From: Longimicrobiales bacterium
Lineage (GTDB): Bacteria > Gemmatimonadota > Gemmatimonadetes > Longimicrobiales > Gaopeijiaceae
DNA length: 64,000 bases
Assembly (NCBI GenBank): GCA_965226375.1
Contig: CBDDCX010000008.1
Coordinates: 992,001-1,056,000, forward strand
Reading direction: 5' to 3'
Part shown: in pieces, positions 23,413 through 26,845 of the stretch
Layout of the letters: every line of letters begins with the position of its first letter
Numbering within the stretch: the stretch's first letter is position 1
Translations under genes and position numbers: made by a program
The notes under the pieces: model-generated
The model's database searches: none
What the model was told of the DNA's origin: nothing
Seen by the model: the letters and a program-made list of their open reading frames with translations, nothing else

Positions 23413-24669
23413 GCGTTGCAGCTCCTACCTATTGCAGTATGTGAGTGGGCATTCATTCACCACGCACCCACCGCCGATCGATGGGCATACGTAGCCCTTG
23501 TTGACACTCCCCGAATGGTGGTGCCGAAGTGGCTGAAAATCCAGATACGCCTTGTGGCTTCGCACACCATAGACGCATTTTGCGGCCATGTCCGACCTCA
23601 CCGCCCGTCTGAACTCCACCCCCGACGACCGCTACGTCGTCGTGCGCTCCGGGGACACGACCTAACACCAAGCGAGGCTAGTGATGAAGCGCCGCACCTT
23701 CGTTCGTTCCGCGATCGCCGCAGCAGCAGCCACGGCCATCCCTACCAAGTCCTTGTGGGGCACCGGATTTCGACTTGCCCAACAGACGCCACCCGATGTG
23801 GACGCGATCTCCCTCGATGGGGGGGAGCTCACCCTGAGGGGGAGGGCGGTGGCCGAACTTCGCGCCCGTATGGCAGGACGGCTTCTCCTGGCCGATCAGG
23901 ACGGCTACGACGAGGCACGGCGTGTTCTCAATCCGTCCTTCGACAAACATCCCGCCCTCATCGCTCAAGCCACTGGCACGGCGGATGTCCGCGCGGCGGT
24001 CGAGTTTGCTCACGAGCACAGTCTATTGCTGGCGGTGAAGTGTGGAGGACACAGTGCCTCGGGTAAGTCGACGTGCGATGGCGGGCTGTTGCTCGACCTG
24101 TCTCCGTTCAGGAACGTCAATGTGGATCCGGTGGCGCAGGAGGCGTGGGTGACTGGAGGCAGCCTACTGGCACAGCTCGACCATGAAGCCATGGCCTATG
24201 ACCTGGTCACTCCGATGGGGACCGTATCTCATACCGGCATTGGAGGCCTCGTCACCGGGGGTGGATTCGGCCGCCTCGCCCGCCGGTTCGGTCTTGCGAT
24301 CGACAACCTCAAGGGTGTCCACGTCGTGACCGCCGACGGTGCTTTCCGTCGGGCCAACGCAGAGGAAAATCCGGATCTGTTCTGGGGCGTACGGGGAGGC
24401 AGCGGCAACTTCGGGGTGGTCACCTCATTCCAATTCCGCCTCCACTCGATGCAGCGGCAAATCGTTCTATGAAAGAGAGTGTCAAGGCCGGGCTCCGCCC
24501 CGGCTGTCTGCGAAGCCGTGTTGGGCTTGGCACTCAGCCTCCGCTTGGCTGGAATGACCGGATCGTCAGGGAGTGGTGTGCTGGATGAGTCAGTCTTCGT
24601 GTCGGCCACGATGATCCTCACTTGGATGGTCGATCCGTCTGGACTTGATTGAGTGGACCTAGGTCGTAC

Positions 24670-24820
24670 GACGCGAACCATGGTTCTATCTGAGACTCAG
24701 CCTCGGGGCCGGCCTGACACTTCTTCGGGTTCTGCGGAAGGGCCTGGAGTTAGGATCGTGCCTCGGCATGACTGCGAGCCGGGCGTACGGATTTGCTTGA
24801 GACTGCCTCCCGCACCGTCG
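24670..24820 (-). ncRNA. Candidate bridge/seek RNA of the IS1111-type element (boundaries approximate)
   Basis: Stem-enclosed segments match the target flanks (24790-24796, 24749-24755) and the circle junction (24717-24725, 24683-24689). Confidence 0.6.
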
Positions 24821-24867
24821 TCCAGGGATTCGACGTTCCAAGGGATCGAAGGTCATGCGCTGCACCC

Positions 24868-25959
24868 CTACACCCTAGGACGATGAACCCCCCTCAATGT
24901 TTGGGGTCGACTCAGCTGCGTCGGATCAAAGACTTCTCCGGTTTTGAGTAGACGAAGGGTGAGCGCTGCGAGCTTGCGAGCCAGCGTCACACGGGCGAGC
25001 TCCTCGCGCATCCCGCGCTCGAGCATTCGGTTATAGAAGTCCAGGAATGGGCCCGGACGTCCAATGGCTACGTTGGCGGCGCCCTTGAAGACATTCTTGA
25101 GGACTCGATTGTGGTTGCGGTTCAACCCTCGAGTGAGCGGAGGGCGCCGCCGCCGGCGAGGACGCCCATCGAACAACTCGTAGTCGGAGCTCGAGCGCGT
25201 GACCACGGCGAGTCCGGCATAGGCCCACAGGTTGCGCTTCGTGCGGAAGCGCCACGGCGTACCCATGGTTGCTAGCAACAGTGCGATACGCACGGGCCCA
25301 AAGTAGGGGATCGTCTCGAGCACCCCGAAGGCCGGATCACGCTTCGCCTCGGCGACCATGGCCGCCTTGGTCTTCTTGCGCTGAGCCCGAAGCACATCGA
25401 GCTGAGCGTACAGGGTCTCGGCTCGTAGACGAGCTCCTCCCTCCGGTAGCTGCGCGAGCCAGGCGCCGCGCTGCTTCGGCTGGTAGACTCCGCCGCCCGT
25501 GGTTCGGATCGCCCGCGCACGGAAGAGTGCCTTGAGCCGCAGCATCACGCGCGTGCCGTCTTCGACGAGGTTGCGATAGGCTCGAGTCAGCTCCTTGAGA
25601 TCAGATCGGCCGTGTGCGCCGTGGTATACCGCGCGCAGCCCGCCACACCGCAACCGCTCCGACAGCTCGTCGGCATCGACCTGGTCCCCCTTGTTGCCCG
25701 AACGCTTTTCGCCTCTGCGATCGCATACGATCACCCGATCCACACGAGGACTCAGTAGGTCGTAGAGCCACTGCGCCTGGGTTCCCTCTTCGAACACTAC
25801 GTGCACCGACCCGCGCATCGCGCTGAAGAACTCCGTGATCGATGCGTCCCCCGTCTCGATCACGCTGCGCGCGATCACTCGTCCCCCTTGGCCCCGAACC
25901 GTCGCCACCGTCATTGCCTGGTGCACGTCGAGTCCCACATACTTGGTGTTCCGCTTCAT
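24868..25959 (-). CDS. IS110-family DEDD transposase/recombinase
   Basis: YVGLDVH, VFEEGT, KGDQVDA (DEDD); LETIPYFG; YAGLAVVTRSS (Transposase_20 serine region). Confidence 0.92.
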   Translation of the reverse strand: MKRNTKYVGLDVHQAMTVATVRGQGGRVIARSVIETGDASITEFFSAMRGSVHVVFEEGTQAQWLYDLLSPRVDRVIVCDRRGEKRSGNKGDQVDADELSERLRCGGLRAVYHGAHGRSDLKELTRAYRNLVEDGTRVMLRLKALFRARAIRTTGGGVYQPKQRGAWLAQLPEGGARLRAETLYAQLDVLRAQRKKTKAAMVAEAKRDPAFGVLETIPYFGPVRIALLLATMGTPWRFRTKRNLWAYAGLAVVTRSSSDYELFDGRPRRRRRPPLTRGLNRNHNRVLKNVFKGAANVAIGRPGPFLDFYNRMLERGMREELARVTLARKLAALTLRLLKTGEVFDPTQLSRPQTLRGVHRPRV

Positions 25960-26845
25960 GAGAGCCGCCCTCTGCTGTGGTCCATGGTCGTTTCGCAACT
26001 CCACGGTACCCACAGGGGGCGTGCTTTCAAGTTGTGTTGGGGGAAACATCTTCTTTCCCATCGAGCGGGCGGGTGACGTCCTGAGCTTGTATGGGGAGTA
26101 CGGGGTACAAGCCCCCGATGAGTTGCAGTTGGACTTCGTGATGGTCCAGCCTCCCGGAGACGCACCGGGCGTGGTGGGATTCGGCGTGTGTTATTCGGGT
26201 CCGGAAGGAGATGCGGAACGCGCGCTCGCTCCCGTCTACGGGTTGGGAACACCCATCGTCGACACGATGCAAGCGATGGACTACGTCGCACTCCAGAAGT
26301 CGGGAGACATCGACGACCCGAGAGCGCGTGCATCCTATCTGAAGAGCGGGTTCTTCTCGGAGATCCCACCGGGGCTGATCGCAGCCATCGTGGACGGCAT
26401 GGAGGGCCATCCGTCTCGAGCTACCCTGGTGATTGTCCAGCAGAGCGGGGGGGCGATCGGCCGTGTTTCGAATACGGCCACCGCGTTCGCCCAGCGAGCT
26501 GCCATCGGAAACCTGCTGCTCGCGGTCGACTGGGCCCACGACGATGATGGCAGTGAGCACACGGCTTGGATCAAGCAGTTCTGGACGACCCTGGAGCCGT
26601 TCACCCATGGGTTTTACGTGAACGACGGCGACCCCGAGGCGTACGAGAGTGCCGAATTCGTCCACGCCAGCTACCGGGAGAATTACCCCCGGTTAGTGGA
26701 GATCAAGAACAGGTACGACCCCGACAACCTATTCAGGATGAATGCCAACGTTGCCCCGACGGTTTGAATTCTGAGTGGCGCCGTCCCTGTGCGCTCCGGC
26801 GCTACCGGCGCATTCTTACGTTGATCGGTTGGGTCGGGCTGCGAA

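Follow-up and report, generated by a model that had tools for sequence, protein, structure and literature searches.

The closest described relatives of the system considered here are the bridge RNA of IS621, from the IS110 group (PMC11208160), and the seekRNAs of the IS1111 elements ISEc11, ISPa11, ISKpn4, and ISPst6 (PMC11187229), both papers being cited here and below for those parts of their text that were available. The IS621 RNA has a target and a donor internal loop, each of which reads both strands, and it serves a recombinase of DEDD plus Ser design (PMC11208160). IS1111 elements have a transposase of 330 to 350 aa with the C-terminal motif GL-P----S/T-G (occasionally a TA variant), and a junction promoter is known for the family (PMC11187229); subterminal inverted repeats in this group are given as 7 to 17 bp in the text available. 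Here, we analyzed a 64,000-nucleotide stretch of DNA from a Longimicrobiales bacterium (GenBank assembly GCA_965226375.1, contig CBDDCX010000008.1, positions 992,001 to 1,056,000, forward strand), the whole of which is referred to below as the window, and which carries a 1.57-kb IS110-family element on its minus strand. We consider it very probable that this element has the IS1111 layout and that its 3' noncoding region encodes a two-loop bridge/seekRNA. Conservation of the RNA structure, covariation of guides with flanks, of a guide with the right end, and of the core, and identity between copies can be read directly from the sequences compared. An RNA of this kind is already known, while the lineage that carries it is little studied.

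The element resembles the IS1111 elements described in the available text of PMC11187229 in its long noncoding region downstream of the transposase gene (approximately 400 nt, 24464-24867, versus approximately 75 nt on the 5' side, 25963-26038), in having subterminal inverted repeats (at 6 bp in this copy, shorter than the range given for the group) and a proposed junction promoter, in the sizes of its target stem-loop (about 80 nt) and of the whole unit (about 146 nt; 82-nt and 154-nt forms are given there), and in natural redirection through changes in the guide blocks. It differs from them in transposase length (364 aa) and in a C-terminal motif of the form GL-x----S[S/A], and it stands as a distant branch relative to these elements, a comparison made by description only. 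With IS621, as covered by the available portion of PMC11208160, it shares target and donor internal loops that would each read both strands, a recombinase of apparent DEDD plus Ser design, and discontiguous donor pairing, which in IS621 concerns the right donor and here the 5' donor segment and the left end. In contrast to IS621, the RNA lies 3' rather than 5' of the gene, the strand order within the loops is reversed, and the guide lengths are 5+2 and 2+7 as opposed to 8-9 and 4-7 (PMC11208160). The features on which the argument rests are as follows.

24464-26038, minus strand: whole insertion sequence, with the core AC (GT on the plus strand) at both junctions and 1572 nt added relative to the empty site
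24868-25962, minus strand: transposase (bridge recombinase) gene, 364 aa, starting MKRNTKYVGLDVH, with Pfam PF01548 and PF02371
24672-24817, minus strand: bridge/seekRNA, 146 nt as modeled, ends approximate; covariance model R1 has no other match in the window than this one, which scores 146 bits
24734-24813, minus strand: target-binding stem-loop of the RNAalifold consensus (helices 1, 2, and 4 paired at 92-98%)
24813-24807/24740-24734 (outer stem), 24803-24800/24745-24742 (second stem), and 24784-24760 (inner hairpin), minus strand: parts of the target stem-loop, with the internal loop between them
24787-24796, minus strand: 5' target guide (T guide), GCAAAUCC (24796-24789) and then GU (24788-24787), which pairs with the core AC
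24749-24755, minus strand: 3' target guide (B guide), UCCUA (24755-24751) plus the core AC (24750-24749)
24675-24732, minus strand: donor-binding stem-loop (helices 5 and 6 paired at 94-97%, with compensatory changes)
24732-24728/24679-24675 (outer stem) and 24715-24693 (inner stem and hairpin), minus strand: parts of the donor stem-loop, with the internal loop between them
24717-24726, minus strand: 5' donor segment GAAGAAGUGU, pairing discontiguously with the left end (AC-AC..CTT of AC followed by ACAACTTG)
24683-24689, minus strand: 3' donor guide, AUAGA plus the core AC, identical to the right end ...CATAGA/AC

RNA structure and target guides

A scan for relatives, limited to one genome per species, gave 93 stretches encoding a related transposase, 80 of which were kept and yielded 75 loci; transposase identity ran from 93% down to 38%, and the records were labeled Longimicrobiales/Gemmatimonadota, Acidobacteriota, Thermoanaerobaculia, Myxococcota, and Sorangium. 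The region matching window positions 24826-24673 retained 75-86% nucleotide identity even where the transposase proteins were only 52-57% identical. RNAalifold applied to a MAFFT alignment of 28 distinct sequences returned two stem-loops, each with an internal loop, comprising 27 pairs, 15 of which showed compensatory changes. The covariance model R1 built from this alignment was searched against both strands of 82 sources (482,614 bases) and produced 75 matches, every one downstream of a transposase gene. In the resulting set of 48 distinct sequences, 95.5% of cells held standard pairs and 16 of the 27 pairs changed on both sides; pairing fell to 25-49% when partners were slid by 1 to 3 columns, and none of 500 shuffles reached any of five measures. 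The 48-sequence alignment was fitted to the covariance model, which favors structure, and the independent MAFFT alignment agrees with it. G-U pairs are frequent (at two of the pairs, for instance, 38 sequences have UG and 41 have GU), and the transcript was therefore assigned to the transposase strand.

Exactly two hypervariable blocks stand within otherwise conserved stems in the alignment of relatives, and these are the T and B guides. On the right side of the core, the T guide pairs with the top strand, predicting AC-GGATTTG(C), and the B guide is identical to the top-strand left flank plus the core and thus pairs with the bottom strand. Element ends in the relatives were located by conserved end motifs, with rows lacking a recognizable end excluded; two misdetected ends (loci L028 and L083) were retained in the guide and flank counts. 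The 8 nt of the T guide preceding the conserved GU were complementary to the 8 nt after the right junction at a mean of 5.44 of 8 positions in cognate pairs versus 2.41 in noncognate pairs (50 distinct pairs, 34 guides), and the 7 nt of the B guide preceding the conserved AC matched the left flank at 4.25 of 7 positions versus 2.51 (44 pairs, 19 guides). In both cases, 0 of 10,000 permutations reached the observed mean, figures that overstate independence because the relatives share ancestry; distinct guide states are nonetheless numerous, at 34 for T and 19 for B. Four T guide/flank pairs agreed at 8/8, 16 at 7/8, and 11 at three positions or fewer, some of the poor pairs reflecting a one-column alignment offset in the Sorangium group. 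Position by position, the signal on the right extended from +1 to +7 (0.66-0.85 versus 0.23-0.47), was weak at +8, and was absent farther out, and on the left it covered -5 to -1 (0.57-0.96 of cognate pairs). These spans give the code N5-AC-N7, which here reads TCCTA-AC-GGATTTG.

An earlier note, made from the window alone, had proposed an RNA of this kind in an intact IS110/IS1111-type element, and what it read in the letters was confirmed. GCAAAUC at 24796-24790 is identical to the plus-strand flank GGCAAATC (24456-24463), UCCUAAC at 24755-24749 pairs with GTTGGGG (26036-26042) through two G-U wobbles, AAGAAGUGU at 24725-24717 matches the donor at 7 of 9 positions, and AUAGAAC at 24689-24683 equals the right end ...CATAGAAC; the junctions at 24460-24472 and 26028-26043 also read as it had given them. 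Its outer stem and inner hairpin agree with the RNAalifold consensus structure, and both Pfam domains, five full-length copies, compensatory stems, and covarying guides bear out the intactness of the element and its downstream RNA. The top-strand match lies 5' of the bottom-strand one in the RNA, which is the segment order of IS1111 in PMC11187229.

The 3-nt GTT core of the same note did not hold, since the core is the dinucleotide AC (GT on the plus strand). At left junctions, any of the four bases may precede AC, in agreement with the corresponding base of the RNA, as in GCCC-T-AC (L036), GGCC-G-AC (L039), AGTT-C-AC (L046), and GACGC-T-AC (L050), whereas at right junctions this base is always A, being part of the right end ...CATAGA. 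The impression of GTT arose because the left target base of this particular element happens to be A. In Sorangium/Polyangiaceae relatives (L077-L079, L082, and L084), AG stands where the others have AC, both at the right end (CCATAGAAG, CTCTAGGAG) and in the RNA's B guide and 3' donor segment, and the GU after the T guide becomes CU in L077, L079, and L078, the aligned columns reading CC in L084 and UC in L082. The core dinucleotide is common to target, donor, and guides. In IS621, the core is CT.

These patterns bear on whether an RNA is involved at all. The conserved block might instead be an element of DNA or mRNA, such as a transposase binding site or a stabilizer in the 3' untranslated region, with the flank matches reflecting a target preference set by the protein. 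In favor of such an account, no sigma-70-type promoter was found inside the integrated element, in a scan that found no intrinsic terminator there either. We nevertheless judge it highly improbable, since two hypervariable blocks inside otherwise conserved stems change in step with flanks on opposite strands, a pattern that a protein code would not yield, since the G-U pairs point to a strand-specific structure, and since the layout equals that of experimentally proven systems (PMC11187229 and PMC11208160, available text).

Donor loop and element ends

The donor loop of the predicted bridge RNA is best supported on its 3' side. Among 14 distinct combinations of RNA and right end, all 14 have a 3' donor segment identical to the terminal 7 nt of the right end, and this holds through four different 7-mers (ATAGAAC, ATAGAAG, ATAGGAC, and CTAGGAG); this agreement is covariation, beyond shared conservation. 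On the 5' side, a pattern of four matches, two unmatched positions, and three matches recurs in relatives. Across 21 combinations, the core and left-end positions +1 and +2 are paired, +3 is a fixed A-A mismatch, and +6 and +7 are paired. The base beside GU tracks left-end position +1 (U with A in the window element, C with G elsewhere), and position +5 covaries as well (G-C in the window element, C-G in L048, and U-A in L039). The segment nonetheless carries two to three fixed mismatches, and in the acidobacterial group UA or CA stands in place of GU, so that the complement of the core is lost. Its role as a guide is partly supported; a clean, contiguous left-donor guide was considered and rejected, as the pairing is discontiguous and the covariation partial.

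The discontiguous 5' donor segment, with its core complement lost in one clade, would also fit an RNA that is only target seeking, through its first stem-loop, while the transposase recognizes the ends via the subterminal inverted repeats and the matches in the second loop belong to a scaffold. The subterminal repeats covary between both ends, much as a protein-binding site would, and the short, 82-nt seekRNA of ISEc11 alone supports transposition according to the available text of PMC11187229. We regard this alternative as unlikely, however, because the 3' donor segment follows the right end even through the change of the core from AC to AG, because the second loop has the same 5+2/2+7 layout as the first, and because its stems are kept by compensatory changes. 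A two-loop RNA with a donor-reading second loop is therefore preferred.

The ends themselves and the gene that they interrupt are as follows.

24470-24475, minus strand: right arm of the subterminal inverted repeat, CTTTCA; the left arm, TGAAAG, is at 26029-26024
24480-24485, minus strand: TTGACA in the right end, candidate -35 of a circle-junction promoter, with a 17-nt spacer and then CAACTT (26034-26029) of the left end
23681-24463, plus strand: 5' portion of the FAD-linked oxidase gene that the element interrupts (Pfam FAD_binding_4); the 3' portion is 26039-26764 (Pfam BBE)

On the plus strand, the left-hand junction reads aatc-GTT-CTATGA (24460-24472) and the right-hand junction reads CAAGTTGT-GTT-ggggg (26028-26043). 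Followed along the minus strand, the order is flank ...TTTCCCCC-AAC-ACAACTTGAAAGC..., the 364-aa frame (25962-24868), the noncoding region of some 400 nt, and ...CTCTTTCATAG-AAC-GATTTGCC... flank. Exactly 3 nt separate the two oxidase halves in 6 of 6 uninterrupted homologues from related genomes, and so the insertion added 1572 nt, with duplication limited to the shared triplet. The subterminal repeat is 6 bp in the window copy and 7-10 bp in relatives, among which it shows a compensatory change (TGAAAGC/GCTTTCA versus TGAGAGC/GCTCTCA). The pattern TTGAC(A/T/G), 17 nt, xAxxxT is kept in 23 of 25 distinct end combinations; by analogy, TTGACA-17 nt-CAACTT would act as a promoter only once the ends are joined at AC.

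The transposase matches Pfam PF01548 (N-terminal DEDD domain) at 33.5 bits (cutoff, 29) and PF02371 (C-terminal domain) at 41.2 bits (cutoff, 21.3). GLDVH, FEEGT, NKxDxxDA, and GL-x----[ST][AS] are kept in 14 full-length aligned relatives, a 15th row (L083) being truncated at 89 aa; in the C-terminal motif, which is GLAVVTRSSSD in the window, those 14 retain Ser/Thr, and Pro and Gly are replaced. Most relatives are 350-361 aa long. The real start is placed at 25962, as relatives begin MKR(N/T/S)TKY; an ATG at 26061, in the stretch of host flank 26039-26061, shares the frame of the gene and gives the 397-aa open reading frame of the frame list. Solved IS110-family chains were matched marginally, ISCro4 at E = 0.016 and IS621 at E = 0.03, and identity to proteins of 72,556 plasmids was at most 29% among the 12 matches listed. 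The RNA model gave matches in 7 genomes, that of the window among them, out of 151 sampled across the phylum; this patchy spread fits a mobile element, as expected.

Genomic copies and natural targets

A DNA search of the assembly with the element gave 11 matches. Five copies are full length, four of them (the window's included) identical over 1575 nt and the fifth with 9 differences, none of which fall within 24672-24817; the RNA covariance model matched seven places in this genome. The left flanks of the copies preceding AAC are ccccc, cccca, ttcct, ctct, gcct, gcct, accc, and ttct; the consensus of these, YCCT-AAC, agrees more closely with UCCUAAC than the site of the window copy does. The right flanks are GATTTGCC, CGGACTTGCA, CAATTTGC (twice), GCCTAGTTGC, and GCTGTTATGC. 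TTGC or ATGC, the complement of the 5' end of the guide, is present in the right flanks of the five full-length copies (L001-L005) and of one partial copy (L007).

Four partial copies lie inside contigs at 97-100% identity (L006-L009; G000 C2:12849-14020, C7:674309-675376, C7:611377-611929, and C8:1081204-1081402). A decayed remnant (L012 4381-4517 and 6085-6191, within G000:C8:1779380-1781190) holds a related noncoding region, 92% identical with indels, without a transposase gene and interrupted by about 1.5 kb of other DNA. Both of its target segments are changed (GC-AAUCC and AGCCUAAC), and it still scores 97.8 bits with the RNA model.

In OZ252253.1 (G186), the complete genome of a relative, 12 right flanks were compared, and 8 of them have in common a repeat approximately 90 nt long. 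Joined to the left flank, this repeat makes up a palindrome of some 100 nt with RYYYAAC at one boundary and GTTRRRY at the other. An integron integrase scores above the curated cutoff of 265 bits in this genome (278), in a second complete genome (G187; 327), and in the window's genome (309), and the same model exceeded the cutoff in 0 of 14 control genomes. In a 20-kb stretch of OZ252253.1 that begins about 1.7 kb before intI (L102), 4 of 4 copies interrupt such a palindrome at the same position, and the second complete genome has one copy at a distance of 3 kb from intI. An unoccupied attC-like site folds with its R and L boxes paired, at a z score of only -1.56. The attC-like sites were found by a looser box search, a detector based on regular expressions and ungapped complements having found none because the arms differ by indels; an Rfam scan of L102 at the gathering score gave no match. 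REP-like repeats had been considered as a reading of the shared right flanks and were replaced by attC-like sites after intI was found beside the arrays. The usual targets of the closest lineage are attC-like palindromes, hit at one R box, and which R box this is stays ambiguous, since both orientations read RYYYAAC...GTTRRRY.

The intI gene points toward the element-bearing array in both complete genomes (G186 2204724-2205398 and G187 3441723-3442649), an arrangement that is not the textbook divergent one, and the G186 match spans only profile positions 90-314. On G186:C1, a multicopy frame of about 297 aa occurs at seven places (2205768-2206568 among them), scores 116.7 bits with the integron-integrase model, below its cutoff, and in one copy directly adjoins intI; it probably represents a further mobile element that encodes a tyrosine recombinase.

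Guide variants can be set beside site variants in these arrays. Unoccupied sites of OZ252253.1 (2210787-2210872, 2227600, and 2235198; L102 and L103) have the spacers GGATCT or GGATAT, which are exact complements of the T guides of L031 and L030 from other genomes and not of the resident, GTCTCT-specific guide. Of the five full-length copies in the window's genome, two sit in attC-like repeats and the window's own does not, and the unfilled repeats, with the sequence CTAAC-GGATT-GCGATT, are a single base shorter than the ideal site for the guide. The full predicted target, TCCTAACGGATTTGC, is absent from this genome at zero or one mismatch, with 5 sites at two mismatches and 54 at up to three. 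A public-run contig that leaves the element at 24463 joins the same right end to GGATTTGC-GATTCTGATC..., which matches the T guide at 8/8 in register. A second contig from the same study covers the guide itself and has a single change elsewhere, at 24751, where this metatranscriptome-library contig (run X2, depth 3.1) has G for T on the plus strand, turning UCCUA into UCCUC; this may be a natural guide variant, and as a single low-depth contig it is possibly an error.

The IS1111-attC group was reportedly described by Tetu and Holmes in 2008 and by Post and Hall in 2009. It homes to attC (PMC11187229, with targets in Table 1 of PMC13604230, both as available). Close relatives of the window element likewise occupy arrays next to an integron integrase, where they enter attC-like palindromes at one end, with orientation and position both constant. 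They differ in that their crossover lies in the R box (RYYYA/AC, which is GT/TRRRY on the other strand), whereas that of ISKpn4 and ISPst6 lies approximately 6 nt further in, by the available text of PMC13604230, and in that their hosts are Gemmatimonadota-type metagenome-assembled genomes and not Proteobacteria, the window's own copy lying outside attC. REP-targeting IS110/IS1111 elements such as ISPa11 and ISPpu9, as far as the available descriptions go, also home to short palindromic genomic repeats; the repeats here are distinct from theirs in having the integron R-box consensus and adjoining intI.

Weighing the evidence and proposed mechanism

Besides the shared ancestry of the relatives and the imperfect 5' donor segment described above, several observations weigh against a two-loop bridge RNA in this element. 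The window's right flank, GATTTGCC, matches the T guide at only 4/8 in register and at 7/7 with a 1-nt slip in which one RNA base is bulged; the site inside the oxidase gene is a weaker pseudo-site slipped by 1 nt. The GCAAAUC match of the earlier note is thus real and displaced by 1 nt, the family register being (G)CAAAUCC-GU with the prediction GGATTTG(C), and the natural target that the note took as known is true of this one site, while close relatives usually target attC-like repeats. In the window's genome, the offset of TTGC/ATGC from the family register varies from -1 to +2, unlike in OZ252253.1, where the register is constant; tolerance to bulges might account for it. The subterminal repeat of just 6 bp in the window copy counts on the same side, as does the score of 118 bits with the NCBIfam equivalog NF033542 for IS110, below its cutoff of 140, which marks a divergent branch. 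An Rfam scan of 24300-26300 at E values up to 1 gave no match. Metatranscriptome-library contigs from 4 runs, with a depth of roughly 2-6, cover the gene and the noncoding region in scattered pieces, with strand, ends, and RNA origin unreadable, and stretches that lack coverage carry no information.

Folded alone, the window RNA has the right shape at an energy that is not significant (z = -0.70; 51 of 200 shuffles were equally stable), and the lone fold was discarded as evidence. The window by itself therefore fails to reveal more-than-chance structure, and it is the relatives that reveal it. Among the checks that the earlier note had set out, folding accordingly succeeded for the consensus and covariance model and not for the single sequence, and the covariation of four segments with target and donor was found for three of them and only partly for the 5' donor segment; its pair of donor guides stands for the clean 3' segment and in part for the discontiguous 5' one.

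A model of the element is proposed on the basis of these comparisons and of analogy to IS621 and ISEc11 biology, the analogy being the source for excision to a circle, for the junction promoter, and for formation of an RNA-protein complex, all of which are inferred. On the transposase strand, this active-looking element would consist of a short left end, the gene for a DEDD/Ser recombinase, and the long 3' noncoding region, transcription of which would yield a two-loop RNA of some 146 nt. Within its first internal loop, (G)CAAAUCC-GU on the 5' strand would pair with the top strand to the right of the crossover and UCCUA-AC on the 3' strand with the bottom strand to its left, so that both target strands together would specify about 14 bp, N5-AC-N7. 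The second loop would read the element's own circle junction, where AUAGA-AC would match the right end and the left end would be matched, discontiguously, by GAAGAAGU-GU. Joined ends would form the TTGACA-17 nt-CAACTT promoter and drive both transposase and RNA, and the recombination itself would use the shared AC dinucleotide and leave no target duplication.

The window itself is ordinary, holding one more copy at a pseudo-site that breaks an oxidase gene. What the family offers is broader, given that bridge and seek RNAs underlie a new class of programmable recombinases and that few natural systems have been dissected. Approximately 70 relatives with 34 T guides and 19 B guides form a series of natural reprogramming from which the N5-AC-N7 code is directly readable, the architecture is unusual in joining a simple two-loop RNA to the IS1111 strand order, and the recombinase is far from IS621 and ISCro4. 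Biologically, the family shows how RNA-guided elements colonize the integron arrays on chromosomes of soil and sediment phyla, their guide variants corresponding to variants of attC. As a tentative proposal, to which we give somewhat less than even weight, these elements may form a deep-branching lineage of bridge-RNA recombinases, patchy in Gemmatimonadota, Acidobacteriota, and Myxococcota and separate from the proteobacterial IS1111-attC group, that homes to the attC R box by a 5 nt-AC-7 nt code and tolerates slips of 1 to 2 nt on the 7-nt side. The 5' target guide would then diversify with attC spacer variants, so that variants of the element partition the attC sites of an array.

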